From IMG/VR virus record IMGVR_UViG_3300025381_000024: a DNA stretch of 46,576 nt. One strand, given 5' to 3'. Shown here one piece after another: positions 11,501-37,957 of the stretch. A program made the translations under genes and the position numbers. Numbering within the stretch: position 1 is the first letter of the stretch; each line of letters starts with the position of its first letter. The notes beneath the pieces are model-generated. The model was given only the letters and a program-made list of their open reading frames with translations. It did no database searches and was not told the DNA's origin. The DNA is from a virus.

Positions 11501-13377
11501 CAGTAACTATTGCCCTGGCATCTAGCGGTGTTACTGCTGGTTCTTATGGATCGGCTAGTACTGTACCGACTTATACAGTTAATGCTCAAGGTCAACTTAC
11601 AGCAGCTTCCAATACGACCATTTCTATTGCTCCTAGTCAGATTAATGCAACCATTCCGAATAGTGGATTGACCAATAGTTCAATCACTATTAATGGAAAT
11701 GCGGTCAGTTTAGGTGGATCAACTACTGTAACTGCTGATACCCCAAATGCTTTAACCATTGGAACTGGATTATCTGGAACATCTTTTAATGGTAGTTCTC
11801 CAGTAACCATTTCTATTTCAAATACTGCGGTAACTGCTGGAAGTTATGGTTCTGCAACTCAAGTTGGAACATTTACTGTTAATGCACAAGGTCAATTGAC
11901 CGCAGCTTCTAATGTCACTATCACCCCAGCAGTTACTTCGATTACTGGATTGGGTATTGGAATGGCTACTTTCTTAGCCACTCCAACAAGTGCAAACTTG
12001 GTTGCTACTGTAACCGATGAAACTGGTACTGGTTCTTTAGTATTTGCCAATACTCCAACTTTAGTTACCCCAATTTTGGGAACTCCTACTTCTGGCACTT
12101 TGACCAATTGCTCTGGACTTCCTTTAAGTACTGGGGTTACTGGTACTTTATCAGTAGGAAATGGCGGTACAGGAGTAACTTCTTCAAGCGGTGCTAATTC
12201 TGTAGTTTTAAGAGATAGCAATCAAAATGTATTTGCTAATAATTTCATACCAAATACAACATTTACAGCATCATCATCAACACCTGTTAATTTAACTGTT
12301 TCATCTGCTCAATATCAAGTAGTAACAGGCACAACTACTTCTCAAGTATTTAATATGCCTGATGCGACTACTTTGATTGTAGGCGATACTTATTATTTTA
12401 ATAATAATATTACTTATTCTTCTGTGCAAATTAATGCACATGATGGAACTACATCATTATTAGCATTACAAGCTGGTGGTGCTGCTCATTTAATTCTTTT
12501 AAGCAATAGCACTTCTAATGGGACTTGGGATATTCATTCTTATGTGCCAGCTTCAGTTTCATGGGGAAATGCAACTTTAAATTTTAATTCTGCAAGTAGT
12601 ATTTCAGGCTCTGTATCTTGGCAAGGTAATACTATAGGCATTGGTTATGGTGGTACTGGTATTACTTCTACACCTACCAATGGTCAATTATTGATTGGTA
12701 ATGGTACTGGTTACACCCTGGCAACCATTACTGCTGGTGCTGGTATCTCAGTCACTAATAGTTCTGGTGGCATCACCATTGCAGTTAATGGTACTGGTGA
12801 AGTAACTAGCTTCCAAACTAGCTTATCAGGGCTAACACCTAGCACCGCTACAGGCGGTGCAGTTACCCTGGCAGGTACTCTAGGGGCTGCATCTGGCGGT
12901 ACTGGAGCAACTACCCTTACTGGATATGTATATGGTAATGGCACTTCAGCCATGACCGCATCAACCACTATTCCTACAAGTGCTTTATCTGGAAACTTTG
13001 TAAGCACATTTAGTGCTGGCACTACTGGTCTAACACCCTCTACTGCGACTGCTGGTGCTATCACTTTAAGTGGTACTTTAGTAGTTGGAAATGGTGGTAC
13101 TGGAGTTGCAACTTTGACAGGCTTGGCTTATGGCAATGGCACTTCTGCTTTTACAGCAGCAACCGCAGCCCAAGTAGTTTCTGTAATAGGTTCTACAGCA
13201 GTAACCAATGCTACCAATGCTGCAAACTTAAACCTGGCTGCTGGTTCAGGATCAACAAACTATATTACTTTTGCTTCTTCTGCAACAGGAAATACAGCAC
13301 AATACACAAATACTGGACTTACTTACAATTACACCAATAATGCTATTACTGGGGGTATCTCAGGTGGCTCTTTTTAA
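8530..13377 (+). CDS. Giant tail fibre protein C (1615 aa) with long internal repeats
   Basis: It has the same N-terminal anchor module (MGILLFANQAQTTL...VRGQEGTVPRAWNRGDF..TAGT). It carries multiple repeated modules (SIAPSQINATIPNSGLTNSSITINGNAVSLGGSTTVTADTPNALTIGTGLSGTSFNGSSPVTI x2 plus a diverged copy, and TASTTIPTTALSGT.TNAQLANS x3). Its ATG overlaps the previous stop. Confidence 0.85.
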   Translation: MGILLFANQAQTTLALPVASTDTVIYVAAGTGSYFPAPSANQAVTITLVNATNNLVVEIVSCTNITGDALTVVRGQEGTVPRAWNRGDFVTNLMTAGTANSFSQIYGLNNALYSPHFANTLTDSGQVIAVPVNPTDLVNKQYADSISTGAAKYECQCATTGDITLSGLQTIDGYTTLAGDRVVVRAQANPAYNGIWVASTTAWARAADMEAWVQIPGATTFVQNGTLYAKTGWVAIVPEIGTIDVTPITWTQISGQGTYSAGTGLTLTGTQFSITNTGVTAGSYGTASYVPALFLNAQGQITSATNTPISIAPSQINATIPNSGLTNSSITIGSTSVSLGSTLTTLVGTSISGSTNTLTAIPNSALVNNSITINGNAVALGGSTTVTAVTPYALTIGTGLSGGSFNGSSAVTIALANTAVTAGSYGSAGSVATFTVNVQGQLTAANTTSIAISNTQVSGLGTMSTQNANNVAITGGTIQGVGLTIDSLDNTPIGSTTPSTAKFTTLSANSTVTLGNYTGYVYANGSSAITASTTIPTTALSGTVTNAQLANSSITINGDLVNLGGSVTVTADLPNSLTFNNSGSGASSPVVFNGATAYTISYNTLGASPLAGSTSLTTTGTITTGTWSGLFGAVSGANLTNLTAGNLTGTIPSTVLGNSTVYIGTTAVALNRASATLALTGITIPTLTIGTGLSGISYNGSTATTIALANTAVTAGSYGSASNTLEATVNGQGQLTALSSVAISIAPSQINATIPNSGLTNSSITINGNAVSLGGSTTVTADTPNALTIGTGLSGTSFNGSSPVTIAISNSGVTSGTYGNASTIPVITVNSQGQITSVSTQPTNAPAYQGTWNASTNNPTLTSSVGTQGYYYVVSTAGNTTLNGVSDWNIGDWAIFSGGAWEKIPGSNTESFTNLTTTNLAVTGLTGYMYANNTIGNVTASTTIPTTALSGTITNAQLANSTISGISLGSNLATLTIGTSLSGTSYNGGSAVTIALASSGVTAGSYGSASTVPTYTVNAQGQLTAASNTTISIAPSQINATIPNSGLTNSSITINGNAVSLGGSTTVTADTPNALTIGTGLSGTSFNGSSPVTISISNTAVTAGSYGSATQVGTFTVNAQGQLTAASNVTITPAVTSITGLGIGMATFLATPTSANLVATVTDETGTGSLVFANTPTLVTPILGTPTSGTLTNCSGLPLSTGVTGTLSVGNGGTGVTSSSGANSVVLRDSNQNVFANNFIPNTTFTASSSTPVNLTVSSAQYQVVTGTTTSQVFNMPDATTLIVGDTYYFNNNITYSSVQINAHDGTTSLLALQAGGAAHLILLSNSTSNGTWDIHSYVPASVSWGNATLNFNSASSISGSVSWQGNTIGIGYGGTGITSTPTNGQLLIGNGTGYTLATITAGAGISVTNSSGGITIAVNGTGEVTSFQTSLSGLTPSTATGGAVTLAGTLGAASGGTGATTLTGYVYGNGTSAMTASTTIPTSALSGNFVSTFSAGTTGLTPSTATAGAITLSGTLVVGNGGTGVATLTGLAYGNGTSAFTAATAAQVVSVIGSTAVTNATNAANLNLAAGSGSTNYITFASSATGNTAQYTNTGLTYNYTNNAITGGISGGSF

Positions 13378-24488: not shown

Positions 24489-24516
24489 ACTTATGTTGGA
24501 TACGAAAGGTAATAAA

Positions 24517-24999
24517 GTGATTGAACCGATACCATTTGCAGGATTAATTGAGTTGGATGTGGGATTTATCCCTGCCAGCTTAGATCGTGCAATTGCCATA
24601 GCTGCTAGTGCTCATGCTGGTCAAGTTGACAAAGCAGGTGAGCCTTATATTTTGCATCCTTTAAGAGTAATGTTGTCTGTACCACCAGAAGCCAGGATTG
24701 CTGCGGTATTGCATGATGTTTTAGAAGATAGCGATATTAGCTCTGACGATTTATTGGCTGAAGGATTTAGCCCTGAAAATTTGGCTGTTTTAGATGCTGT
24801 CAGTCGTAGACCTGGTGAGTCATACCATTCATTTATTGTTCGATGCTCTAAAAACCCATTGGCTAGAATCGTTAAATTGGCTGATTTGCGAGATAACTGC
24901 GATATGAGTAGATTGGCAAATCCATCTTTGGCTGATTGGGCAAGATACGAAAAATATATGGAAGCAATTGTTTATTTGCGTGGCGATGAATTGTGCTAA
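24517..24999 (+). CDS. HD-domain small alarmone hydrolase (SpoT/Mesh1-type (p)ppGpp/(p)ppApp pyrophosphohydrolase)
   Basis: AASAHAGQVDKAGEPYILHPLRV, AAVLHDVLEDS and VKLADLRDN match the RelA/SpoT hydrolase-domain motifs (AH.GQ.RK.GEPYI.HPL.VA, LHDV.ED, KLADRL.N). The start is probably GTG 24517, 7 nt after AAAGG; the ORF-track ATG at 24493 lies at the predicted transcript start. Confidence 0.8.
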   Translation: MIEPIPFAGLIELDVGFIPASLDRAIAIAASAHAGQVDKAGEPYILHPLRVMLSVPPEARIAAVLHDVLEDSDISSDDLLAEGFSPENLAVLDAVSRRPGESYHSFIVRCSKNPLARIVKLADLRDNCDMSRLANPSLADWARYEKYMEAIVYLRGDELC

Positions 25000-27076: not shown

Positions 27077-27553
27077 ATGGATAAACAAGTTAAATTTTCT
27101 AAAATATATGGACTCTCAGATAAAAAAACTGGAGAGATAATCTATATTGGAAAATCGGATGATCCAAAAAAAAGATTAAAACAACATATTTATGACTCAA
27201 AAAGGCGAAATACAAAATTACATCAATGGATTAGAAAAAATCCAAATTCAGTAGAATTGATTATATTAGCCTGTGCTATAAGTAATGATTGGCAATCCCT
27301 TGAAAAACAAATGATTGCTCAATATAAAGAATCTGGAAAACTTCTTAATATTGCCAAAGGCGGAAATCAACCATTTAGAGATGAAAATGATTCATTTAAA
27401 AGAAAAGCATGGATTATTAAAAATTTCATGGCTAGACTTGTCAATGAATGGAAAAATATACCAACCACCGAAAAAATTGAAGAAAGAAAAGCCATGCTTA
27501 GATATGCTGCATGGAAAAAACCAGAATTATTTGGTGAATGGAAGTATTTATGA
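27077..27553 (+). CDS. GIY-YIG endonuclease (free-standing homing-endonuclease-like)
   Basis: KIYGLSDKKTGEIIYIGKSDDPKKRLKQH gives the GIY...YIG...R motifs. The gene is inserted just before terS and its stop overlaps the terS ATG. Confidence 0.75.
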   Translation: MDKQVKFSKIYGLSDKKTGEIIYIGKSDDPKKRLKQHIYDSKRRNTKLHQWIRKNPNSVELIILACAISNDWQSLEKQMIAQYKESGKLLNIAKGGNQPFRDENDSFKRKAWIIKNFMARLVNEWKNIPTTEKIEERKAMLRYAAWKKPELFGEWKYL

Positions 27554-28002
27554 AAGAAAAGGGCAGACCATCCATCTTTACTGAAGAAATAGCCCATGAG
27601 ATTACTGAAAGATTGTCAGATGGAGAGCCATTAAGAGCAATTTGTCGATCTGAAGGAATGCCAAACTGGAGAACTGTGTATGATTGGATGGCAAAAGATA
27701 ATACATTTTCCGCACACATCGCACACGCAAGGGAGATTGGCTTTGATGCAATAGCCGAAGAAGCCCTAATGATTGCTGATACTCCTTGCTATTTAGAAAC
27801 AAAAGAAACCATTGAAGATCAAGGAAAACCAACAAAAGTTAAAGTCGTAGTGGCTGATGCTTTTAATCATCGTAGATTACAAGTCGATACTAGGCTAAAA
27901 CTATTAGCTAAATGGTGTCCTAAAAAATATGGCGATCAAGTTCAATTTGATGTAGAAAACAATAACTGGACAGTCAATGGCATCCCTGTCAAAACAAGGT
28001 AG
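27550..28002 (+). CDS. terS: Terminase small subunit
   Basis: KGRPSIFTEEIAHEITERLSDGEPLRAICRSEGMPNWRTVYDWM is the typical HTH N-terminus of phage small terminase subunits. It lies directly upstream of, and overlaps, terL. Confidence 0.8.
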   Translation: MKEKGRPSIFTEEIAHEITERLSDGEPLRAICRSEGMPNWRTVYDWMAKDNTFSAHIAHAREIGFDAIAEEALMIADTPCYLETKETIEDQGKPTKVKVVVADAFNHRRLQVDTRLKLLAKWCPKKYGDQVQFDVENNNWTVNGIPVKTR

Positions 28003-29278
28003 AGAACCCATAGAATTACCCCCTTTACACCAGGGACAACAAGAAGCCTTTGATGCTTCCACTCGATTTTTTGCTATTCGCTGCGGTAGGCGATGGGGCA
28101 AAACTGCCATGATGCAAAACATTGCTTGTGCTGGAGCAGCCCAAGGCGAAAAAATAGGATGGTTTGCACCTGACTATAAAATTCAATCTGAAGCCTTTAG
28201 GGAAATAGCCGATCTATTAGCTCCCATGATTAAGTCATCATCTAAGATTGATGGCATTATTCAAACCTATACTGGTGGGCGCATAGACTTCTGGACTTTG
28301 GAAAATGAAAGGGCTGGTCGATCCAGGAAATACCATAAAGCCTTTATTGATGAAGCAGCCTTTACCAAGCCCAATATGTCTAAAGTATGGCAAACCGCTA
28401 TCAAACCAGCATTACTCGATTATCAAGGTAGTTGTATTACAGCATCAACACCCAATGGAATTGATAGCGACAACTTCTTTTGGCAGATATGCAATCAGCC
28501 TGAACATGGATTTACTGAATACCATGCTCCAACCTTTACTAATCCATTTCTACCTAAAGAGGAATTGGAAAAGCTGGAGAGAGAAAATCATCCAATGGTA
28601 TTTAAGCAAGAATACCTGGCTGAATTCGTGGATTGGTCAGGTGAAGCATTCTTTAGCCTAGATAAGCTGCTGGTCGATAATAAACCTGTGGTTTACCCTA
28701 GTAAATGCGATGGTGTATATGCAGTCATTGATACTGCGGTCAAAGGCGGTAAAGAAAATGATGGTACTGCCATTGTCTATGTTGCTGTAGACCGATATAC
28801 CCAAAATCCATATAACCTGATTTTATTGGATTGGGATATTGTGCAAATTGATGGCGCAATGCTAGAAAATTGGATGCCAAGTGTATTTTCCAGATTAGAA
28901 GAACTCGCTAGATTGACTAATGCAAGGCAGGGAGTTGTCGGTACATTTATTGAAGATGCTGCTGCTGGATCAATTTTGATTCAACAAGGCAGAGCAAGAG
29001 GATGGAATACTCATGCCATTGACTCAGGGTTAACCTCAGTAGGCAAGGATGAAAGAGCCATTTCTGTATCGGGTTACTTTCACCAGGGCTTAATGAAGAT
29101 TAGCGATTATGCTTTTGATAAGACTATGACATTTAAAAATGCTAGTCGTAATCACCTATTAACTCAGGTAACTGGATTTAGAATTGGCGATAAAGATGCC
29201 TACAAAAGAGCAGATGACTTGCTAGATGCTTTCGTATATAGTTTAGCCATTGGTGTTGGCGATAAATATGGCTACTAA
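27977..29278 (+). CDS. terL: Terminase large subunit
   Basis: Walker A-like CGRRWGKT, a Walker B-like FIDEAAF and a C-terminal nuclease-type acidic residue pattern. 433 aa, followed by the portal gene. Confidence 0.9.
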   Translation: MASLSKQGREPIELPPLHQGQQEAFDASTRFFAIRCGRRWGKTAMMQNIACAGAAQGEKIGWFAPDYKIQSEAFREIADLLAPMIKSSSKIDGIIQTYTGGRIDFWTLENERAGRSRKYHKAFIDEAAFTKPNMSKVWQTAIKPALLDYQGSCITASTPNGIDSDNFFWQICNQPEHGFTEYHAPTFTNPFLPKEELEKLERENHPMVFKQEYLAEFVDWSGEAFFSLDKLLVDNKPVVYPSKCDGVYAVIDTAVKGGKENDGTAIVYVAVDRYTQNPYNLILLDWDIVQIDGAMLENWMPSVFSRLEELARLTNARQGVVGTFIEDAAAGSILIQQGRARGWNTHAIDSGLTSVGKDERAISVSGYFHQGLMKISDYAFDKTMTFKNASRNHLLTQVTGFRIGDKDAYKRADDLLDAFVYSLAIGVGDKYGY

Positions 29279-29287
29279 GGAATAACT

Positions 29288-31579
29288 ATGTCTGATGTGA
29301 TGGTGAATAATACTTATCTGGGTGGTGAATTAATGAACCTGCTCAGTTCTGAGAATATCCAACCAGGTTCACAGGCAGGTTATGAATTATGCAAAATCAT
29401 TTGGGAATATCACCCATTAGGCGGTAAATTAGTTGAAAAGCCAGTTCGCTTGGCTCTTTCAAAACCCAGAATTATTACTGTAGATGCAGAACCAAAGGAA
29501 ATGTTGGTCGAGGCATTTCAAAAAGAATGGGAAAAATTAGGTGCTACTAATCATATTCGTGATGTTATGTTTATCAATCGCACTTATGGGGCTGGTGGAA
29601 TTGTTGTGGGTGCTGATAAGATTCCTACTACTGAGCCTATTGATCCTTGGCAGCTTCCTGATCTCAACATTTATTTTAATCAGTTAGACCCATTAAACAT
29701 GGCTGGTTCGATTGTTACAAACCAGAACCCAAATGCGCCAGACTTTCAAAAACCTCTTGCATACACTACTGCTGCTGGTCAGCCTTATCATCCTAGCCGT
29801 AGCGTGGTGGTATTCAATGGCACTCCTATCTACTTGTCTTTCCAATCTAGTGCTTTCGGCTATACAGGTCGAAGTGTGTTTCAAAGGGCATTGTATCCAT
29901 TAAAGTCTTTTGTTCAGTCGATGATTACCGATGACCTGGTGACTTTTAAATCAGGTCTGATTATTGCCAAGCAAAAACCTGCTGGGTCTATTGTCAATCG
30001 CTTAATGCAAACTGCTGCTGGTATTAAGCGCACTTATTTGCAAGAAGGCGGTACTGGCAATGTGCTATCAATTGATATTGATGAAGAAATCAACTCCATT
30101 GATTTGACCAATACTGCAACTGCAATGACAACTGCCAGAGATAACATCATTGCCAATATTGCTGCTGCTTCCGATGTCCCTGCAATGCTACTCAAAGATG
30201 AAGCATTTACTCAAGGCTTTGGTGAAGGTACTGAAGATGCAAAAGCCATTGTCCAGTACATTGATGGCATTCGAGTTGACATGGAATCTTTGTTCCGATT
30301 CTTTGACAAGATCGTAATGCACCGAGCCTGGAATAAAGAATTATTTGAATCTATTCAATCTGCCTATCCAGAGCAATATGGCAAGATGACCTATGAGCAA
30401 GCATTCTATTCATGGAAAAATGCTTTCAAACCTGAGTGGGAATCACTCATGGAAGAACCGCCAAGCGAAAAAGTCAAAGTTGATGACATTAAGCTAAAAG
30501 GTGTTACTGAAGTACTTCGTACAATGCTGCCAGTTATTGATCCACAAAATAGAGCAAATTTAATTCAATGGGCTGCTGACAATTTGAATGAAATGCCAGA
30601 TATGTTCCAAAGTTCTATGCAATTGGATGCTGATGCAATCGCTGAATATGAAATTCCAGAACAAGAACTTAAAAACTTACCTAGATTGGATGCTTATTTT
30701 GCAAAGGGGGATTGGGCAAACCCCACCCCAAAAGCTGATGCTTTCATAGAACAAGACCATCCCAGGGATGCGGATGGAAAATTTACTGCTGGCGCAGGTA
30801 GTAGCGCAGCAACCACTACTATGCCTGGTGGTCGAGCACAAGCCCCATATACTGTGGCAGCTAAATCTATTCCACAACCACCAGAGCCACCAAAGGCAGC
30901 AAATAAACCTACAGCAGCAGAGCCACCTAAAGTTCCAACCGCCAAAAGCGCAAAAGAGCATTTAGAAGGAAAGTTGCAAAAGAAAGATGTAGATCGCTTA
31001 CCAAAAGAAAAACGCAAAGAATTTGAAGAAATGTACCAAAGGGCTGCCCAAAACAAAAACAAGTTTGATGAGACCAATGCCCAGATCGCTAAAGAACTTG
31101 GTGGTAAAGCTGCGGTTGTGCCACTCAAGGGTTCAGAAAGAGCAGTTGATAAGATCACCAAGTCTTACAATAATGACCCATCCAAAATTAAAGATTTGCT
31201 CAGAACCACTATCGAGATTAATTCAGTAAAAGATGTGCCAAGTGCTATCGAGAAGATTAAAGCCCAATATGGTGAGCCAGCAAAATTAAGAAATCTTCTT
31301 GATCCTAATGTCGATTCATTAGCAGGGTCTGGATACCGAGACATCAATATGGTGGTTGAAGTCAATGGTTCTTATGCTGAGATTCAAGTAAATATGCCCC
31401 AGATGCTAGAAGCAAAAGAAAAAGGGCATAAGTACTATGAAGAAGTTCGTATTATTGTCGAGGATGCTGAAGTTCAAAAAAGACCATTAACTGCTGATGA
31501 GCAGGAAAAGGTTAATGCAGCCAACAATAAGATGAAAGAACTTTATGATGCTGCCTGGGAATCCATCACCAAAGCCTGA
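29288..31579 (+). CDS. Portal protein fused to a C-terminal RelA/SpoT-like nucleotidyltransferase domain
   Basis: The ~480-aa N-terminal core is portal-like by position after terL and by size. It is followed by HPRDADGKF, a Pro/Ala/Lys-rich linker, and a C-terminal domain with PLKGSERAVDKI, DLLRTTIEI, SGYRDINMVV and AEIQVNM...GHKYYE. Confidence 0.7.
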   Translation: MSDVMVNNTYLGGELMNLLSSENIQPGSQAGYELCKIIWEYHPLGGKLVEKPVRLALSKPRIITVDAEPKEMLVEAFQKEWEKLGATNHIRDVMFINRTYGAGGIVVGADKIPTTEPIDPWQLPDLNIYFNQLDPLNMAGSIVTNQNPNAPDFQKPLAYTTAAGQPYHPSRSVVVFNGTPIYLSFQSSAFGYTGRSVFQRALYPLKSFVQSMITDDLVTFKSGLIIAKQKPAGSIVNRLMQTAAGIKRTYLQEGGTGNVLSIDIDEEINSIDLTNTATAMTTARDNIIANIAAASDVPAMLLKDEAFTQGFGEGTEDAKAIVQYIDGIRVDMESLFRFFDKIVMHRAWNKELFESIQSAYPEQYGKMTYEQAFYSWKNAFKPEWESLMEEPPSEKVKVDDIKLKGVTEVLRTMLPVIDPQNRANLIQWAADNLNEMPDMFQSSMQLDADAIAEYEIPEQELKNLPRLDAYFAKGDWANPTPKADAFIEQDHPRDADGKFTAGAGSSAATTTMPGGRAQAPYTVAAKSIPQPPEPPKAANKPTAAEPPKVPTAKSAKEHLEGKLQKKDVDRLPKEKRKEFEEMYQRAAQNKNKFDETNAQIAKELGGKAAVVPLKGSERAVDKITKSYNNDPSKIKDLLRTTIEINSVKDVPSAIEKIKAQYGEPAKLRNLLDPNVDSLAGSGYRDINMVVEVNGSYAEIQVNMPQMLEAKEKGHKYYEEVRIIVEDAEVQKRPLTADEQEKVNAANNKMKELYDAAWESITKA

Positions 31580-31761
31580 AAAGCCGATGAATTAATTGGT
31601 AGCATAAAGACACCCTTCATATCAAAGGGTTGAGGTTCTCCATTGATCCAAGCTGCAACCATTGGAATACCATCACCAGCATTGACTGATACTGGATATT
31701 CATCTTCTGCTGTTACATAGAAAATAGCCGATGGACTAATCTCATATTTGCCTATTTGCAT
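31543..31761 (-). CDS. Hypothetical protein (72 aa from ATG 31761), convergent with and overlapping the portal 3' end
   Basis: An AAAGGAG Shine-Dalgarno sequence lies 5 nt before the second ATG (31761). A TGATACAAT extended -10-like sequence (minus strand, about 31780-31788) lies upstream. The 3' end overlaps the portal ORF by 37 nt. Confidence 0.5.
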   Translation of the reverse strand: MQIGKYEISPSAIFYVTAEDEYPVSVNAGDGIPMVAAWINGEPQPFDMKGVFMLPINSSAFQALVMDSQAAS

Positions 31762-31813
31762 ATAGACTCCTTTCATTAAATTGTATCATACATCTACCCC
31801 TATAGGATAGAGC

Positions 31814-31838
31814 AAAAAGCCCACAAGGGGCTTATTTT
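31814..31838 (-). terminator. Rho-independent terminator of the leftward island operon (hairpin flanked by A and T runs, so possibly bidirectional)
   Basis: The minus strand reads AAGCCC-CTTGT-GGGCTT followed by TTTG. On the plus strand it is preceded by AAAAA. Confidence 0.6.
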
Positions 31839-32028
31839 AATAGCGATTCTTTAATAATCTTTTTGCTGCTGCCAGGCGAAGATCATCCGCTTCAGAATTA
31901 AGACCAGGCAAAATAGATAATGCTCGAATCATATTCTTTAATGCAACTTTGTCAGAATTGCCAGCAATTCGCAAATCCGCATACTTCGCAGGATTATTAA
32001 TTTTCAAATCTTCATAATAGCTAGACAT
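31837..32028 (-). CDS. Hypothetical protein (63 aa), island
   Basis: The CACGAAAGG leader (32037-32045, minus strand) lies 8 nt upstream of the ATG. Confidence 0.6.
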   Translation of the reverse strand: MSSYYEDLKINNPAKYADLRIAGNSDKVALKNMIRALSILPGLNSEADDLRLAAAKRLLKNRY

Positions 32029-32046
32029 TTTATTTCCCTTTCGTGG

Positions 32047-32277
32047 TTATCTTGGAATTTCCAAAATCATATTGCCATCCATGATTTCAAACAAAATCGC
32101 TTTGGCTCTGTTCAAACTCTGTCTGGCTCTTTCATTCGCACCCACAGCCAATTCCTCTTGAGCATCACTCATAAGACCAGCAACAACAATACCAGCCCCA
32201 CCCAACTTGTAGCTGGCTGATGATCTGATCTGCGCTATAAACTGCTCAATGTCGCAACCATACATTTCCTGACTCAT
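32047..32277 (-). CDS. Small protein, paralogue of 19501-19746
   Basis: 76 aa. About 55-60% identical by eye to the early-operon copy, with an invariant MSDAQEE.AVG..ERARQSLNRAK core. Confidence 0.7.
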   Translation of the reverse strand: MSQEMYGCDIEQFIAQIRSSASYKLGGAGIVVAGLMSDAQEELAVGANERARQSLNRAKAILFEIMDGNMILEIPR

Positions 32278-32420
32278 GCTGCACCCCTTTCTTGAAATTG
32301 CTGGATAACTGCCCTAGCAGCAGCAGCCCTGCCCATTTGACCTTTTGCCAAAGCCAAAATCAAAATCCCCTGGGCTTGGGCAATACTGAAAACCTCGTAT
32401 CCATACAAAGACAAACTCAT
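32274..32420 (-). CDS. Small Ala-rich protein (48 aa), first gene of the leftward island operon
   Basis: MSLSLYGYEVFSIAQAQGILILALAKGQMGRAAAARAVIQQFQERGAA. The CACGAAAGG leader lies 8 nt upstream. The stop overlaps the next ATG. Confidence 0.5.
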   Translation of the reverse strand: MSLSLYGYEVFSIAQAQGILILALAKGQMGRAAAARAVIQQFQERGAA

Positions 32421-32455
32421 TTCAAACTCCTTTCGTGATTAACTACTACACTTAC

Positions 32456-32484
32456 ATATTAATACTTATTAGGTATAAGCACAA
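32456..32484 (-). promoter_or_regulatory. Leftward island promoter (TTGTGC-17 nt-TAATAT)
   Basis: The minus strand reads TTGTGCTTATACCTAATAAGTATTAATATGTAAGTGTAGTAGTTAATCACGAAAGGAGTTTGAAATG. Confidence 0.55.
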
Positions 32485-32540
32485 GGACTATTTCACTATT
32501 TGTTGTATTTGTGCAAAAACAACACTTTAGATAAATAGAT

Positions 32541-32569
32541 TTGACACCTATACTAAATAGGAATAATAT
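32541..32569 (+). promoter_or_regulatory. Rightward island promoter (TTGACA-17 nt-TAATAT)
   Basis: A consensus -35, a 17-nt spacer and a good -10, followed by the leader ...GTAGTCTTAATTAACCACGAAAGGG and ATG 32609. Confidence 0.65.
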
Positions 32570-32608
32570 AAGAATGTAGTCTTAATTAACCACGAAAGGG
32601 AATTAAAA

Positions 32609-32782
32609 ATGCAGATCGACCAAGCCATTGCAATTATTGAGGAATATCGCCAGGACTGTGGAATTGGGTTCTTGGAAGCCTTGATTGAAATTCGTCAGAA
32701 TCCAGAGGAATTTAGCGAGCAGCAATTGATCGCTTATCGGGTTTTTATGAATGATGCTCGTCAGATGTTTCAACCAGCTTGA
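32609..32782 (+). CDS. Hypothetical protein (57 aa), island
   Basis: MQIDQAIAIIEEYRQDCGIGFLEALIEIRQNPEEF... The CACGAAAGG leader lies 9 nt upstream. It is below the ORF-track cutoff. Confidence 0.55.
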   Translation: MQIDQAIAIIEEYRQDCGIGFLEALIEIRQNPEEFSEQQLIAYRVFMNDARQMFQPA

Positions 32783-32791
32783 GGGGGTTTT

Positions 32792-32989
32792 ATGAATTTA
32801 TTGATTGCTGAAAAAGTTGGCGGTTCTTTTCAAAAAATCGGTGTCATGAATGGCGATGAGTTGCTTGCAGATTGTTTGCTTGCTGTCGGTCTTGCCTACA
32901 ATGCCAAAAGGTTTTTTGAAGGAGATTCGGCAGCAGTTTCTCTGGATTATCAGTTAGAGGGTATTGAGTACAGAGTTTTAAAGTTTTAA
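32792..32989 (+). CDS. Hypothetical protein (65 aa), island
   Basis: A GAGGGGG Shine-Dalgarno sequence lies upstream. The gene is compactly placed. Confidence 0.55.
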   Translation: MNLLIAEKVGGSFQKIGVMNGDELLADCLLAVGLAYNAKRFFEGDSAAVSLDYQLEGIEYRVLKF

Positions 32990-33015
32990 GTAGTTCAACC
33001 ACGAAAGGAGTTGTT

Positions 33016-33258
33016 ATGAAATACCAATTAGATGTTAGTCGTGATGTAGATGCGGATGACGATGCCTATATGCTCTGGCTGCCATTCGGCTTTAGATTTT
33101 CAGATGATTTAGTTCATGTTCGAGGTTTTGACACTATGGCTGAGATTCGTCAAGCTGCCAAAAATGATGTTATTCCCTGCGATTGTGAAGATTGCAAGTT
33201 GAATATCAAAGAATTGGCTGCCAAGAAAGCATCTTTTATGAAGGAAATGCTGAAGTAG
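33016..33258 (+). CDS. Hypothetical protein (80 aa), island
   Basis: The CACGAAAGG leader (33000-33008) lies 7 nt upstream of the ATG. Confidence 0.6.
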   Translation: MKYQLDVSRDVDADDDAYMLWLPFGFRFSDDLVHVRGFDTMAEIRQAAKNDVIPCDCEDCKLNIKELAAKKASFMKEMLK

Positions 33259-33265
33259 CAAAAAT

Positions 33266-33290
33266 GCAACAACCCTAAAAAAGTTGTTGC
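33266..33290 (+). promoter_or_regulatory. 8-bp hairpin GCAACAAC-(9 nt)-GTTGTTGC overlapping the -35 of the next promoter
   Basis: Read directly. It is not followed by a T run, so it is not a classical terminator. Confidence 0.35.
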
Positions 33291-33314
33291 ATTAATACCT
33301 AATAGGTATATACT
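33287..33314 (+). promoter_or_regulatory. Rightward island promoter (TTGCAT-16 nt-TATACT)
   Basis: It is followed by GAAAGTGTAGTAATTAACCACGAAAGGAAAATTATG. The ATACCTAATAGGTAT and GTGTAGTA.TTAA.CACGAAAGG segments are shared with the 32456 promoter unit on the other strand. Confidence 0.55.
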
Positions 33315-33347
33315 GAAAGTGTAGTAATTAACCACGAAAGGAAAATT

Positions 33348-33680
33348 ATGAAAGAAGTTGAAATCTGGGCTGGCAAAAAAGTCATGGCATACCAGGATGC
33401 TGACTTGGTTGAAAAAATGCCCTATATCAAAGCTGCTGAGTCTGTCTGGTATCAAAGCTGGTTGGACAATGGCGGTGAGGATGTCGGTAGCTGCTGCGGT
33501 GGCAAAGCGATTCGGATTTACTACTTGGGCAAAGGAAAAAGAAATGTTGTAGAAAAAAGCATTGTGCCTTGTAGCTTTGTTCAGGGAAATGTGGCTGCTG
33601 CGAAATCAGTTGCTCCTGCTTTGGAATTCTTGGCTGCTCATGGGATTGTCGGTGAGTATTACGATGGTTGGATGGATTGA
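33348..33680 (+). CDS. Hypothetical protein (110 aa), island
   Basis: The CACGAAAGG leader lies 6 nt upstream. Confidence 0.6.
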   Translation: MKEVEIWAGKKVMAYQDADLVEKMPYIKAAESVWYQSWLDNGGEDVGSCCGGKAIRIYYLGKGKRNVVEKSIVPCSFVQGNVAAAKSVAPALEFLAAHGIVGEYYDGWMD

Positions 33681-33685
33681 TTAAT

Positions 33686-33699
33686 GCCCCTTCGGGGGC
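33686..33699 (+). promoter_or_regulatory. GCCCC-UUCG-GGGGC tetraloop hairpin (copy 1), fused to the CACGAAAGG leader
   Basis: ATGCCCCTTCGGGGGCTTCACGAAAGGAAT. There is no T run, so it is more likely a processing, stability or attenuation element than a terminator. Confidence 0.5.
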
Positions 33700-33717
33700 T
33701 TCACGAAAGGAATCAAA

Positions 33718-33969
33718 ATGGCAATGGCTTATAAAGAAATGGTTGTGTTTGCGAAATATGTTTATAGCTTCTATGGCGATGGCGGTATTTATGATATGGG
33801 AGTTCCCTATGAAATCATTAAGCAAGCTATCCGCTTTTTGCAATCAAAGGATGGTCGCAAGTATCGCTACGGTATTCCTGTGTGTGGCGATTCTGTAGAT
33901 CGTGAGCATATTCGCATGATCTTGGAAGAAGAATATGGGTATTGTGAAAAAAAGCTACAAGCTGCTTGA
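33718..33969 (+). CDS. Hypothetical protein (83 aa), island
   Basis: The leader CACGAAAGG lies 7 nt upstream. Confidence 0.6.
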   Translation: MAMAYKEMVVFAKYVYSFYGDGGIYDMGVPYEIIKQAIRFLQSKDGRKYRYGIPVCGDSVDREHIRMILEEEYGYCEKKLQAA

Positions 33970-33993
33970 CATTATCCTAAATTAGTATATTAT
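33966..33993 (+). promoter_or_regulatory. Rightward island promoter (TTGACA-16 nt-TATTAT)
   Basis: A consensus -35 overlaps the stop of the previous gene. It is followed by ...GTTGTAGTG... and the AAGGAG Shine-Dalgarno sequence of ATG 34035. Confidence 0.5.
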
Positions 33994-34034
33994 TAAGTTG
34001 TAGTGTTTATTAATCATCAAATAAGGAGTTAATC

Positions 34035-34532
34035 ATGGGTTCAATTAGTAGTCATGCTGGTGCTGCCAAAATGGTTCGCCAGTTTATGAAAGCCAAAGGC
34101 ATCGCTGGTCAAGTTCGCAGCAAAAGCTATAGCATGGGTAGCAGCATTCATGTGTATGTTCAGGATTTGCCCCCAGCGCAATATGCTGAGTTGAGCAGCT
34201 ATGTCAGTCAGTTTGAGTATGGTCACTTCAATGGCATGGAAGATATTTATGAGATCAGCAATCGCAGGGATGACATTCCCCAAGTGAAATATGCCTTTGT
34301 TGACAATAAAATGAGTGATGCCTTGGGTGAAAAGATTTACCAGTTCATGAAAGGATATTACTCTGGCATGGAAGGTGCTCCAGATAGTTTCAAAGATGCC
34401 CATAGTTTTTACAACATGAGATTCAATGGGTATGCAAGTCACTTGGTTTACAAGTTATTTGCTGGTGGTTATATGCACAATGAATATTGGATTTCAGTTG
34501 GTGTCATTGCTCCAGAAGTAGAAGCTGCTTAA
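34035..34532 (+). CDS. Hypothetical protein (165 aa), island
   Basis: Strong AAGGAG Shine-Dalgarno sequence. No motif I can name with confidence. Confidence 0.65.
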   Translation: MGSISSHAGAAKMVRQFMKAKGIAGQVRSKSYSMGSSIHVYVQDLPPAQYAELSSYVSQFEYGHFNGMEDIYEISNRRDDIPQVKYAFVDNKMSDALGEKIYQFMKGYYSGMEGAPDSFKDAHSFYNMRFNGYASHLVYKLFAGGYMHNEYWISVGVIAPEVEAA

Positions 34533-34537
34533 TTGAT

Positions 34538-34551
34538 GCCCCTTCGGGGGC
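34538..34551 (+). promoter_or_regulatory. GCCCC-UUCG-GGGGC tetraloop hairpin (copy 2), fused to a CATGAAAGG leader variant
   Basis: ATGCCCCTTCGGGGGCTTTCCATGAAAGGGAAT, a near-repeat of 33683-33712. Confidence 0.5.
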
Positions 34552-34571
34552 TTTCCATGAAAGGGAATAGT

Positions 34572-34748
34572 ATGATAGATAAATTTTTAACTTTAGAAAA
34601 TGCCAAGGCTTATGCTGCAACTCAGGACAAATTGCTATTTTGCGAATATTTGACAGACTTGCCATTCCAAAGCAAAGCATTAGAAAAGTTTGAATATGAA
34701 ATGTTTGTGTTTGCCCTTAATTTAGGACTTGTATCAGAAGATGACTAA
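34572..34748 (+). CDS. Hypothetical protein (58 aa from ATG 34572), island
   Basis: ATG 34572 lies 6 nt after the AAAGGG leader. The upstream in-frame extension in the ORF track would run through the hairpin. Confidence 0.5.
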   Translation: MIDKFLTLENAKAYAATQDKLLFCEYLTDLPFQSKALEKFEYEMFVFALNLGLVSEDD

Positions 34749-34950
34749 AACTAGAAAAAGGGGTGGTCTTGGTACTACCCCAAAACCAGAAGAAATTATT
34801 GCAGCCAGGGCTGCATTATCTCAATCCAAAGCTGCATCTTTAATATATACTACCCAAGCAAGATGGTCAGATTATGAAACTGGCAAAAGTCGTATGCACC
34901 CTGCTGCCTGGGAACTATTTTTATTAAAGATACAGAATGACATTTTTTGA
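34741..34950 (+). CDS. XRE-type helix-turn-helix protein (69 aa)
   Basis: LSQSKAASLIYTTQARWSDYETGKSRMHPAAWELFLL fits the HTH_XRE pattern (q..aA.l.g.s...is.wE.G.r.p). It overlaps both neighbours. Confidence 0.6.
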   Translation: MTKTRKRGGLGTTPKPEEIIAARAALSQSKAASLIYTTQARWSDYETGKSRMHPAAWELFLLKIQNDIF

Positions 34951-35737
34951 AGTTCTTACTGCTGCCATTAATGACTTTATTGAATATGGCTTTGATTCTC
35001 AAAGTCGAGTAGACAATTGGCTTAAAAAGATTAAAGAAGCAGCAGAAAAGGCTTTGATGTCAGAAGCCCAGATGCAAAAAGAAATGGAAAAGTCTTTAAA
35101 TGCAGCCTTTTCTCGCCTGGTGACTAAAGGCGGTCTAGTCAATAAAGAAGTATCCAAATATGACATTGACCGATTAAAGCCAAAACTTAGGTCTGAACTA
35201 GATCGCAGAATCATGGCTTCTGCAAACTTGATTAAATACAATCGAGAGCAAAGTATTACAGATGTGCTCAGAAGATTTGAAGGTTGGGCTACATCCATTC
35301 CTAAAGGCGGTTCACTCGCAGTAGACCGCAATAAAGAAAAACAAAATATTAAAAAGTCTTTAGCAAAAATGCCTTTTAATCAAAGGCGAGTTGTAATAGA
35401 TCAAACCCATAAATTGATTTCTAACATTAATGATATTGTCGCTGTTGATAATGGCGCAATTGCTGGTAAATGGCATTCTCATTGGAAACAAATTAATTAT
35501 GATTACCGCAAAGATCATAAAGAAAGGGATGAAAAGGTTTATGTCATTAGAGGTAATTGGGCAAGCGAAAAAGGATTTATTAAAGCCACTAATGGATATA
35601 CTGATGACATTACCACTCCAGGTGAAGAAGTATACTGTCGCTGTTATTACAAATATATTTACAGTTTGCGAAAGATGCCTGAAGAAATGCTTACAAAAAA
35701 AGGCAAACTAGCGTTACAATCGTCAAAAATACTGTAA
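34937..35737 (+). CDS. MuF / SPP1 gp7-like minor head (head morphogenesis) protein
   Basis: The C-terminal GKWHSHW...TPGEEVYCRCYYKYIY resembles the P..H.NCRC end of the MuF family. 266 aa, at the head of the capsid-assembly genes. Confidence 0.7.
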   Translation: MTFFEVLTAAINDFIEYGFDSQSRVDNWLKKIKEAAEKALMSEAQMQKEMEKSLNAAFSRLVTKGGLVNKEVSKYDIDRLKPKLRSELDRRIMASANLIKYNREQSITDVLRRFEGWATSIPKGGSLAVDRNKEKQNIKKSLAKMPFNQRRVVIDQTHKLISNINDIVAVDNGAIAGKWHSHWKQINYDYRKDHKERDEKVYVIRGNWASEKGFIKATNGYTDDITTPGEEVYCRCYYKYIYSLRKMPEEMLTKKGKLALQSSKIL

Positions 35738-35746
35738 GGTAGTTTT

Positions 35747-37957
35747 ATGCCATTTAAGTCGGAACAACAAAGAAAAGCTATGTATGCTGCATTGGCAGGA
35801 CATAGCAACATTGGAATTCCTAAAGAAGTGGCTAAAAAATTCATCAAACACAGCGAAGATGATTCTGGTGATTTCCCAGAAAAAGCTACTCCACTCAGCA
35901 CTCCAGAATTTAAAGAAGATGATGAAATCGTCATTCGTGCTGGCAAAAAAGATGAATTAAAGAAATTTCAAGGTGATTTAGCTGATGTAGCTAAAATCAT
36001 CCAAGGTCTTAAAGACCAATCTCAAACAGTACCTAGATTTGGTCAAGATGCTGACCCTTGCTGGGAAGGCTATAAACAAGTTGGCATGAAAGAAAAAGAT
36101 GGCAAAGAAGTACCAAATTGTGTGCCAGATGCTGCTGATCTAGTAGCTAAAACCCCAGAATTAGTTGCTCCAATTGCTAATAATGCTGGTGCAGCAGGTC
36201 GGGCTTCTGGAATCATGTTTGTTACTGGTGAAGGTCATACTTTATTAATTCGCAGAGGTTCAGGCGGTGGCGATTATCCTAATACCTGGTGTGTGCCAGG
36301 CGGTCATCAAAAAGAAGGCGAAACTTTAGAAGAAGCTGCTCGCAGAGAAACTAAAGAAGAAACTGGCATTGACTATAAGGGTAAATTAGAAGTATTACAC
36401 GATGATGGTCAATTCTGCACCTACATTGCTAGAGATGTAAAAAAAGAAGAAGTCAAACTCAATTATGAGTCTACTGGCTATGATTGGTGCGATCCGCTTT
36501 GCCCACCTTTGCCATTACATCCTGGTTTAGAAGTTGCATTCAAAATTGCATCCTCTAAGACTGAGACCGATGTTGCTCAGTTAATGGCTGATAACCTTAT
36601 TCCAAGTCCACAAATGTATGCCAATATCATGTTATTGGCTATCCGCATTACTGGTACTGGATTGGCTTATCGGTCAAGCATTGGCGAGAATGTCTGGAGA
36701 GACCCATCACTTTATCTAAATGATGAGTTCTTAAAAAGATGTAATGGATTAATGGTCATTATGGATCATCCAGATTCTGCGGTTCTTACTTCTAAGGAAT
36801 TTAAAAATCGTGCAGTAGGAAGTATTATGCTTCCTTATATTAAAGGTGATGAAGTCTGGGGCATCGCTAAAATCTATGACCAAGATGCTGTAAATGAAAT
36901 TTGTGAGGGAGAGATTTCTACCTCACCTTCAGTAGTATTTGACAATACTGCTGGAAACACTACACTAACTACTGAGAATGGCGAGCCACTCTTAATAGAA
37001 GGTGTTCCATTTCTTTTAGACCATATAGCTATCGTTACGAAAGCTAGAGGGTCTAGAGGTGTATGGGATAAGGGTGGCGATGCCACAGGAGTTCTTTTAA
37101 ATAACCAAGAGGTGTCTGATATGAATGACAATACTATTGCACCAAAGGCAGATGCCCAAGGTGATAAGTTGGATGCTGTACTCGCTGTACTAGGCGATTT
37201 GGCTGCAAGAATGGATGCGATGGAGAAGGAATTACCTGCTCCACCATTAGTTACTGCTGCTGATAAAAAGCGCAAAGATGATGACTCAAAACATCGTAAA
37301 GACGATGATGATGAGGAAGAAGAAGAAATGGCTAAAAAAGATGATGATGATGAGTCTGAATCTGAAGCTAAAGCCTATATGATGCGTAAAGCTGACAAGA
37401 AGCGTAAAGATGCAGAAGGTTCTGATCCAAAAGAACATGGCAAAGCTGGCGAAATCAAGCCTGATGATGAAGGCATGGTTGAACATCCTGGTCACATGGA
37501 ATTCAAAAAAGATGACGATGATGAGGAAGAAGAAGCAATGCGTAAAGATGAAGAAGAAGCTGCAATGTGCGATGCACAAGCTAAAGCTGATTCTGTTTAT
37601 GCTTCCTTCGGTAAATCTGCTTCTCGCCCATTAAAAGGCGAAGTTCTATTGTCTTATCGCAAGCGTTTGTTGCGTGGTCTCCAAGCCTATTCTGATAGCT
37701 ACAAGTCAGTAAACTTGGCTTCTATCAAAGATGCACAATTGTTAAATATTGCTGAAAAGCAAATTTTTAATGATGCTTTGATGGCTGCTAAATCACCAAC
37801 TATGTTCGCCCCAGATCAATTGATTGAAATTCATGAAAAAGATCGTGCTGGTCGTACAATCACGAAATTCAAAGGCGCAATGGAAGCATGGCTAGGTGAC
37901 TTTAAAGTTCCTTCTATGCGAGTCAAAGAATTTCATCTTTTCAACAATAAGCGATAA
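35747..37957 (+). CDS. Polyprotein: N-terminal conserved phage motifs, a Nudix hydrolase domain, a scaffold/prohead-protease-like region, and a highly charged scaffold-like C-terminus
   Basis: A perfect Nudix box GHQKEGETLEEAARRETKEETGI (GX5EX7REUXEEXGU) lies at 36302-36370. It sits in the position between MuF and the capsid genes. It has long acidic/basic runs (KDDDDEEEEEMAKKDDDDESESE and KKDDDDEEEEAMRKDEEE). Confidence 0.7.
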   Translation: MPFKSEQQRKAMYAALAGHSNIGIPKEVAKKFIKHSEDDSGDFPEKATPLSTPEFKEDDEIVIRAGKKDELKKFQGDLADVAKIIQGLKDQSQTVPRFGQDADPCWEGYKQVGMKEKDGKEVPNCVPDAADLVAKTPELVAPIANNAGAAGRASGIMFVTGEGHTLLIRRGSGGGDYPNTWCVPGGHQKEGETLEEAARRETKEETGIDYKGKLEVLHDDGQFCTYIARDVKKEEVKLNYESTGYDWCDPLCPPLPLHPGLEVAFKIASSKTETDVAQLMADNLIPSPQMYANIMLLAIRITGTGLAYRSSIGENVWRDPSLYLNDEFLKRCNGLMVIMDHPDSAVLTSKEFKNRAVGSIMLPYIKGDEVWGIAKIYDQDAVNEICEGEISTSPSVVFDNTAGNTTLTTENGEPLLIEGVPFLLDHIAIVTKARGSRGVWDKGGDATGVLLNNQEVSDMNDNTIAPKADAQGDKLDAVLAVLGDLAARMDAMEKELPAPPLVTAADKKRKDDDSKHRKDDDDEEEEEMAKKDDDDESESEAKAYMMRKADKKRKDAEGSDPKEHGKAGEIKPDDEGMVEHPGHMEFKKDDDDEEEEAMRKDEEEAAMCDAQAKADSVYASFGKSASRPLKGEVLLSYRKRLLRGLQAYSDSYKSVNLASIKDAQLLNIAEKQIFNDALMAAKSPTMFAPDQLIEIHEKDRAGRTITKFKGAMEAWLGDFKVPSMRVKEFHLFNNKR

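Follow-up and report, generated by a model that had tools for sequence, protein, structure and literature searches.

Enzymes with the synthetase fold of RelA/SpoT homologues (RSH) have been described as toxins joined to phage head proteins. RelA-like toxins fused to MuF were predicted in 2017 by Jamet (PMC5576092), and MuF-Apk2 makes (p)ppApp and is neutralised by the Tis1-like protein IapK and by Aph1, the systems being found in prophages of Bacteroides caccae, S. pneumoniae and M. haemolytica (PMC10083569, PMC12226406). A 2025 survey of 1,369 Tas1 homologues listed Sec, type VII secretion, type III secretion, MuF, DUF4157 and Rhs/PAAR carriers, and no portals. Insofar as such fusions are described in Iyer 2017 (PMC5512222), PBECR, 2H and InPase domains are joined to portal or MuF proteins and predicted to be packaged and injected, and RelA/SpoT domains occur on MuF and within polyvalent proteins, not on portals. 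MuF fusions are the only phage-borne (p)ppApp toxins known to date, and their packaging and injection were left open (PMC10083569). Here we analysed a 46,576-nucleotide (nt) stretch of viral DNA, IMG/VR record IMGVR_UViG_3300025381_000024 (the window), in which the portal protein carries a Tas1/Apk-type domain at its C-terminus. The portal is a new carrier for an already known phage toxin type and not a new principle.

The locus shares with the Apk2 module a head protein of the packaging module that ends in a Tas1-like domain, a gene for an Aph1-type HD hydrolase in the same genome, a small gene adjoining the toxin (orf77) and the logic of polymorphic toxins. It differs in that the N-terminal carrier is the portal, or in relatives a stand-alone protein encoded after the portal, and not MuF; the MuF-like gene of the window has no cargo. 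The small gene is convergent, overlaps the 3' end of the toxin and has no detectable similarity to solved proteins, and the hydrolase gene is located in the replication region, 4.3 kb upstream (for some relatives, in the island between the portal and MuF genes). Unlike the Apk2 prophages, the window and its relatives are uncultured, myovirus-like phages of ~46 kb. The original prediction, made from the letters of the window, had named MuF proteins with RelA_SpoT-type cargo as precedent, and this precedent is real (PMC5576092; Apk2, Ahmad 2023, PMC10083569). Tas1 (Apk1), an effector of the P. aeruginosa type VI secretion system (T6SS; structure 6OX6), is the best match by both sequence and structure, with near-identical syn1, syn2 and syn4 motifs. 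Tas1 differs from the window domain in that identity is only ~28%, the syn3 region is different, it is delivered by a PAAR/T6SS carrier and not by a virion, and its immunity protein Tis1 is unrelated by sequence to orf77.

Table 1. Coordinates of the portal-toxin locus and associated genes in the window.
Feature	Position	Strand	Description
Aph1-type HD (p)ppApp hydrolase, putative	24493..24999 (alternative start 24517)	+	168 amino acids (aa); replication/Nin region
terL (large terminase)	27977..29278	+	ends at 29278; portal starts at 29288
Portal-Apk fusion gene	29288..31579	+	763 aa; directly 3' of terL
Portal core, Phage_portal_3/DUF1073	29288..30739	+	residues ~1-484; Pfam PF06381 and PHROG 146
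Junction motif HPRDADGKF	30758..30784	+	residues 491-499; extended form FIEQDHPRDADGKFTAGAG
Low-complexity linker	30785..30979	+	residues 500-564 (~65 residues); Gly/Ser/Ala-rich, then Pro/Ala/Lys-rich
Tas1/Apk-type RelA-SpoT-fold pyrophosphokinase domain, predicted	30980..31576	+	residues 565-763, 199 aa
orf77, candidate immunity protein, new family	31543..31776	-	72-77 aa; overlaps last 12 toxin codons
Variable island	31580..34936		between portal and MuF-like genes; holds orf77 and small open reading frames (ORFs)
Island ORFs	31837-32028, 32047-32277, 32274-32420	-	
Island ORF, weak LPD29 match	34035-34532	+	22.8 bits, cut-off 27
Cargo-less MuF-like head morphogenesis gene	34937..35737	+	PHROG 324 E 5.6e-26; Pfam Phage_Mu_F only E 0.092
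Nudix + DUF2213 protein (Pa193 gp24-like scaffold)	35747..37957	+	Pfam NUDIX E 3.7e-16, DUF2213 E 2.5e-8

The N-terminal part of the fusion protein was assigned to the portals by a profile above its cut-off and by a position straight after the large terminase. Pfam Phage_portal_3 (PF06381) matched residues 38-329 (E 4.5e-16, 58.9 bits against a gathering score of 33.8), and PHROG 146 'portal protein' matched residues 12-484 (E 2.4e-50). The original prediction had divided the 763-aa ORF into a portal core, HPRDADGKF, a Pro/Ala/Lys-rich linker and a C-terminal domain with four RelA/SpoT-like motifs. All these parts were found, and the motifs are present in the order claimed, namely PLKGSERAVDKI at residues 612-623, IKDLLRTTIEI at 634-644, SGYRDINMVV at 681-690 and AEIQVNMPQM at 697-706. 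Its placement of the domain at 31020-31579 (residues 578-763) was right as to location and late as to the start, since the fold begins at about residue 565-573 in the structure model. The claim that the cargo sits on the portal with a separate cargo-less MuF downstream also held, the MuF-like gene starting 3.36 kb past the portal stop. A protein identical to the window fusion (P0012) was encoded on 31 contigs, and portal and toxin were called as a single gene on independent metagenome contigs.

The assignment of the C-terminal domain to the RSH synthetase fold is secure, and its Tas1/Apk affiliation is strong. In a phmmer search of all PDB sequences, Tas1 (6OX6_A) was the sole significant chain (E 1.9e-16, ~28% identity, query 576-712 on Tas1 246-375). 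An AlphaFold2 model of residues 565-763 was built on ten homologues and reached a predicted local distance difference test (pLDDT) of 93.3 and a predicted template modelling (pTM) score of 0.84. Foldseek against the PDB, a check proposed with the original prediction, placed Tas1 first (E 1.1e-8, template modelling score 0.65) and the exported alarmone synthetase 8VX3 second, and the top 37 matches were RSH synthetase domains throughout (Tas1, an exported small alarmone synthetase, Rel, RelP, RelQ, RelA and SpoT). The syn1, syn2 and syn4 motifs correspond nearly residue for residue to those of Tas1 (PLKGSERAVDKI/PIKSRERAMQKI, IKDLLRTTIEI/IKDLARNTIIV and AEIQVNMPQM/GEIQVNSPEM, respectively). Residues K614, R618, K622, D636, E698 and Q700 are present and invariant among 10 close homologues. 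Distant toxin homologues were collected by an exhaustive search of representatives, the word-indexed profile search having reached close relatives only; in 65 diverse representatives there was no exception at the syn2 Asp or the syn4 Glu/Gln and hardly any at the syn1 residues. In RelSeq, the syn1 Lys/Arg, syn2 Asp and syn4 Glu-x-Gln residues are catalytic.

Adenosine-type variants, reported with Apk2 to set adenosine 3'-pyrophosphokinases apart from (p)ppGpp synthetases, are R-x-T in syn2, G-x-N in syn3 and a syn4 that is not I-R (PMC12226406), and the window domain has RTT, DIN and VN, respectively, with syn2 and syn4 the same as in Tas1. The substitutions listed in the original prediction (G to R in syn2, H to N in syn3 and RT to NM in syn4) thus turn out to be the Tas1/Apk signature. 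Its reading of a divergent RelA/SpoT-fold domain can be made specific: by sequence, structure and motifs the domain is Tas1/Apk-like and not a housekeeping (p)ppGpp synthetase. It is likely that the domain synthesises (p)ppApp, as far as its motifs and its closest match indicate.

The distribution of the domain among related portals was followed in a whole-protein search, which returned 1,633 relatives, the best 120 of which were examined for architecture. Most of these 120 were bare portals of 468-485 aa, 68-86% identical to the window protein over residues 1-470, and nineteen clusters (748-769 aa) had the full portal-motif-linker-toxin architecture. Portal cores 58-86% identical carried no tail or a Tas1-like, a Zeta-like, an HExxH-type or a multi-module tail. 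The Zeta-toxin-like P-loop tail reached 22.7 bits in Pfam against a cut-off of 22.3, and the multi-module tails held two or three copies of the junction motif and ended in the same Tas1-like domain. The toxin domain is missing from most portals of the family, and the possibility raised with the original prediction, that it is a generic structural extension of this portal family, was therefore not borne out. In other relatives the toxin is a stand-alone protein of ~305 aa, consisting of ~43 N-terminal residues, HPRDxDGKF, linker and toxin, and its gene starts 10 nt after the stop of a bare portal gene with its own AGGAG ribosome-binding site and ATG. A programmed frameshift joining portal and toxin in these split forms was considered and rejected, given this ribosome-binding site and start codon and the lack of a slippery sequence.

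A census was made of 121 loci, 102 of them of the window's portal family and falling into 33 clusters at 97% portal identity. The toxin was fused to the portal in seven clusters and split in three, and near-identical portals carried different toxin alleles or none. The exchange can be followed at DNA level between the window and one locus (L061). Identity was 92-100% per 100-nt bin (nearly all 97-100%) from 26470 to ~30870, a stretch that takes in terL, the portal core, the motif and 90 nt beyond, fell to 48-76% over the linker, the toxin and most of orf77, and was 90-100% again from ~31730. The left breakpoint of the swap thus lies at ~30870, inside the linker. On an identical portal, the toxin-orf77 pair of L061 shows 54% and 52% identity with the pair of the window. 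Because identity drops and recovers around both genes, toxin and orf77 move as one cassette, which is exchanged by recombination as in polymorphic toxin-immunity systems. Both hallmarks of such systems were found, namely a conserved N-terminal carrier with alternative C-terminal toxins, and a toxin and partner gene that are swapped together. Behind portals at least 97% identical (L007/L036/L103 against L040-L045, L104 and L108) stood two distinct alleles of the stand-alone toxin, which share 52% and 42% identity with the window domain and are each paired with an orf77 variant of their own; the split form is therefore subject to cassette exchange too. That the cassette is polymorphic suggests that it serves related phages, or their hosts, in competing with one another.

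Among isolates the portal was met at protein level only. Megablast of the portal gene against 50,697 phage records gave no match; cultured relatives were 44-48% identical, some annotated as portal protein, with matches ending at the end of the portal core, and the toxin domain had 28%-identical matches only. The 65 representative carriers of the toxin domain included 3-4 portals, 2 MuF proteins and seven proteins with ddrB-ParB, and half of them fell into PHROG families of unknown function. Among predicted viral structures, polyvalent-type proteins of ~1,000 aa matched best.

orf77 is the most likely candidate for a direct immunity gene. It was present in every toxin-positive locus extending past the toxin 3' end and absent from all toxin-negative loci of the census, and Apk2 homologues are likewise reported to be followed always by a tis1-like gene (PMC10083569). 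Toxin and orf77 identities covary (100/100, 81/87, 73/71-74, 67/51 and 52/36%). A bias at the third codon position in its own frame (e.g. 5/3/19 and 11/11/33) marks orf77 as coding, and the family is recognisable across genomes of 34-68% GC, in one locus on the same strand as the toxin. By analogy with Tis1 and IapK, its product is probably a direct inhibitor of the toxin. Two other small genes, orf63 and orf76, were rejected as toxin-linked, both being found also in toxin-negative loci. None of ten small ORFs scanned downstream of the portal matched Pfam, and three ORFs tested (31546-31776, 31840-32028 and 32050-32277) had no NCBIfam match.

At 31543-31579 the C-terminus of orf77 (…DSQAAS) is antisense to the conserved C-terminus of the toxin (…DAAWES…), and, with both peptides conserved in many loci, each gene limits the variation of the other over ~37 nt. 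A GC-rich hairpin with T-runs on both strands, resembling a bidirectional terminator, lies between orf63 and orf77 at 31817-31833, 240 nt past the portal stop; a late portal transcript, if ending there, would be wholly antisense to orf77. Promoter and terminator scans around orf77 gave consensus-level matches only and were not used as evidence. In distant phages of higher GC (L047-L053), orf77-like sequences (e.g. L047:7844-8101 and L048:10549-11865, both minus strand) lie antisense within the tail of a longer plus-strand ORF that continues beyond the toxin domain, the weakest of these matches possibly being drift of the hidden Markov model (HMM).

The HD gene proposed in the original prediction at 24517-24999 was confirmed, with 24493 as an alternative start. 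Its product matched the '(p)ppApp hydrolase' Aph1 (7SMG_A) over residues 21-155 (E 2.4e-30), far closer than any Rel/SpoT hydrolase domain (E 1e-10 or worse), and Pfam HD_4 scored 29.6 bits. Six residues are kept in Aph enzymes and not in (p)ppGpp hydrolases (D24, R96, D116, R119, K133 and Y134; PMC10083569), and all six, together with the HD dyad, are conserved in the window protein. The loci were searched with HMMs built from them. The HD gene was found in all six toxin-positive portal clusters having sufficient flanking DNA, either ~4.3 kb upstream as in the window or within the portal-MuF island, and in one of the 13 fully covered toxin-negative clusters. Fisher's exact test for five fully covered positive against thirteen negative clusters gave ~7e-4 by hand calculation, a figure that overstates independence because the clusters are related. 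The role of antidote given to the gene in the original prediction is upheld by the likeness to Aph1, the specificity residues and the co-occurrence with the toxin, and the HD protein very likely acts by degrading the product. That account of a toxin and an HD antidote is supported, its injected effector and early expression of the antidote being conjecture; what it missed was orf77 and the nature of the cargo as a polymorphic cassette. In one toxin-negative locus (L078) the HD gene lies at 6177-6572 and the portal at 9628-11028, with neither toxin domain nor orf77, and the portal is at least 97% identical to those of L028 and L029, which have a split toxin; here the toxin may have been lost and the hydrolase kept.

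The original prediction had counted a Nudix domain inside the scaffold protein as a second hydrolase of the circuit. The domain is present (residues 152-249 of the ORF at 35747-37957), and its inclusion in a toxin-specific circuit was dropped: the Nudix-DUF2213 arrangement is found in every relative reaching that gene, those with bare portals or other cargo included, and it therefore has no specific link with the toxin. Every family member examined has, besides the Nudix domain at the N-terminus of its DUF2213 protein, a Cys-rich CWxGY…VPNCVP element in that protein (DUF6321 in relatives). Elsewhere, too, Nudix and the junction motif are often found together (in 9 of the 93 proteins among the matches listed), which suggests that Nudix is itself head-packaged cargo.

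All 19 full-length Tas1-type portal homologues had the junction motif, at residues 484-507, as did most other cargo-bearing portals (absent from P0044, P0056 and P0116); it lay at residues 44-52 of the stand-alone toxins and was repeated between the modules of P0031 and P0032. A degenerate DNA pattern for HPRDxDGKF carries ~36 bits, so that about one chance match is expected, and it was found in more than 119 viral contigs, with an extended consensus [FW]xExxHPRDxDGKF and then a Gly/Ser-rich stretch. Among the matches listed, 109 of 119 motif-bearing ORFs were unrelated to the window's portal family, and the 93 non-redundant proteins comprised 24 of Phage_portal_3, one each of the lambda, HK97 and Mu portal types, two MuF and five DUF2213 proteins. 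Pfam partners in the same set were ADP-ribosyltransferases, Nudix, topoisomerase IB, PBECR nucleases, Zeta, LPD, 2H and GNAT. The motif stands at the carrier-cargo junction of at least 27 portals from four Pfam portal families. Besides 30758-30784 in the window, the motif-bearing loci are L122-L236. No Pfam family covers the motif and no publication naming it was found.

The partners of the motif include the ART-PolyVal, PBECR, LPD, Zeta, TopoIB and Nudix domains of the Iyer 2017 systems, and the multi-module tails of some relatives resemble polyvalent proteins; insofar as that survey treats such proteins, the HPRDxDGKF motif, the co-varying small gene and the Aph1-type partner are not described in it (PMC5512222). 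The motif marks the boundary of carrier and cargo in some proteins, separates modules in others and, in small cargo proteins that stand alone, lies near the N-terminus; this variable position fits a processing site or a docking handle. Tentatively, motif and Gly/Ser linker might serve as a general address or processing signal for head-carried proteins. The signal could then join or dock interchangeable effector modules to at least four portal families, MuF and scaffolds, and possibly release them for injection, a proposal we hold just as tentatively.

From these data the following course can be proposed. With the portal C-terminus facing the capsid interior, up to twelve toxin copies would be enclosed per head; incorporation of the toxin domain as part of the portal is very probable. 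The cargo would come free of the portal, probably through a cut in or close to the junction motif, and would leave with the DNA. Internal proteins and Alt of phage T4 are packaged in the capsid, trimmed by the head protease and injected with the DNA, and they offer a model for addressing head-packaged enzymes (PMC5512222); they have no sequence relationship to the toxin. In the newly infected cell the toxin would convert ATP/ADP to (p)ppApp, draining ATP and stalling functions of the host or of a competitor, and orf77 (as a direct inhibitor, like Tis1 or IapK) and the Aph1-like hydrolase (by degrading the product) would limit the damage in cells bearing or expressing the phage genome. Release and injection are a finely balanced matter and may or may not take place. 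The whole chain, a portal-borne Tas1/Apk toxin that is packaged, released and injected, with orf77 and the Aph1-like protein as antidotes, seems to us the probable one.

Several observations weigh against this chain or its parts. The hmmscan against Pfam RelA_SpoT (PF04607) proposed with the original prediction fails the threshold when taken alone: the whole protein scored 18.9 bits and the isolated domain 21.6 bits (E 2.8e-4) against a gathering score of 27, with a match that, though sub-threshold, spans profile positions 5-102 of 113. The syn3 motif is D-I-N, with N kept and G replaced by D relative to Tas1 and Apk2. orf77, alone and as a 17-sequence profile, had no match in the PDB, Tis1 included; its single-sequence structure model reached a pLDDT of 41.7 with no usable fold; and it is convergent, whereas classical immunity genes run in the same direction as their toxin. 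The association counts, made on related metagenome contigs, are phylogenetically non-independent. HPRDADGKF occurs once in the six-frame translation of the window, and the motif is therefore not a general cleavage site common to scaffold and capsid proteins. A portal normally stays in the virion, and cargo without cleavage could not reach a new host. No prohead protease was firmly identified in the window, where only a weak PHROG match (E 1.9e-5) names a protease. The literature consulted does not support DUF2213 as a secure prohead protease and describes it as a putative scaffolding protein retained in the Pa193 virion (PMC11456595).

The last of these points bear on an alternative in which the toxin is never delivered. 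It would remain bound to the portal or, late in the producing cell, act only within portal subunits that are free or not assembled; there its effect would be to arrest metabolism or defence of the host or to set the time of lysis, and orf77 and the HD hydrolase would tune its activity in that cell. That no protease is firmly identified, that the motif is unique in the window and that portals are stable virion components all fit this alternative, as do two described systems. The free domain of MuF-Apk2 is more toxic than the full-length protein, so activity can be lowered by tethering (PMC10083569), and the T7 portal Gp8 binds and inhibits host RelA/SpoT synthetases via surfaces of the portal ring, within the infected cell and without leaving it (Nat Commun 2026, PMC13483052). 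Gp8 resembles the window fusion as a portal that interferes with host alarmone metabolism and differs in lacking a fused enzyme domain, a toxin and an immunity gene. We consider non-delivery unlikely, since the motif precedes domains of injected-effector type (ART, PBECR, TopoIB and Zeta) and separates modules, as fits polyprotein processing, since the toxin is also encoded as a small protein of its own, in which the motif lies close to the N-terminus, and since toxins directed at other cells are typically polymorphic and have a co-varying partner gene.

The other alternatives concern the enzyme. An active RSH-fold domain might catalyse another reaction, either pyrophosphorylation of the tRNA 3' end, as in toxic small alarmone synthetases of FaRel2/CapRel type, or (p)ppGpp synthesis. 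The fold is common to all of these, FaRel2, Rel, RelP and RelQ structures were also among the Foldseek matches, and the second-best structure, 8VX3, comes from a study of exported synthetases making (p)ppApp and (p)ppGpp; the syn motifs are moreover unreliable guides to substrate, motif swaps in Apk2 having left specificity unchanged (PMC12226406). Such a reaction is nevertheless improbable, as Tas1 is the sole PDB chain found by sequence as well as the best structure, FaRel2 was weak (E 0.014 or worse), and the six residues by which (p)ppApp hydrolases are reportedly distinguished are all kept in the co-occurring hydrolase. A catalytically dead portal extension, structural or nucleotide-binding and without toxin function, could be imagined from the sub-threshold Pfam score and from the fusion to an essential structural protein made abundantly late in infection. 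This we regard as highly improbable: the syn-motif residues are invariant in close and distant homologues, most family portals do without the domain, relatives have it swapped for other toxin-type domains, and it travels with a dedicated hydrolase and a co-varying small gene. A portal-borne (p)ppApp toxin with two likely antidotes is the reading we prefer.

The window phage is myovirus-like, with baseplate, sheath and endolysin genes, an Erf/SSB/YqaJ/RusA/NinB module and an O-like replication protein; no integrase was found among the window ORFs scanned. The island between portal and MuF-like genes is absent in many bare-portal relatives, where the MuF-like gene directly follows the portal, and measures 0.3-5 kb in others. 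LPD29, weakly matched by one of its ORFs (34035-34532), is a domain of large polyvalent proteins, and other island genes may therefore also be head cargo. The small terminase gene is immediately preceded by a 158-aa ORF with a GIY-YIG domain (27077-27553); three relatives (L005, L006 and L007) have no such gene at that site, which gives the ORF the look of a homing-endonuclease insertion. In some relatives with bare portals or Zeta cargo, TAGT and Tet/JBP-like proteins are encoded beside ParB_N (L005:3784-5419 and L006:3993-4886), which may point to DNA hypermodification; the window lacks these genes. The tail module contains a 1,615-aa ORF (8530-13377) with a tail-fibre match at residues 1345-1448 only.

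A covalent fusion to the portal gives the toxin a fixed location and, in principle, a fixed copy number in the head, which makes the packaging question directly testable. Near-identical phages supply natural comparisons, with bare, fused and split portal-toxin forms and with different toxin alleles on identical portals, and orf77 represents a candidate immunity family without known relatives. The junction motif may help to find head-packaged effectors in metagenomes; if it is indeed a general signal, injected phage effectors could be listed directly from sequence, and portals would be widely used as carriers of polymorphic toxins that bring along immunity genes of their own, the orf77 family among them. 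If the toxin is injected, the phage would deplete the ATP of its own target cell and then rescue that cell by early genes.

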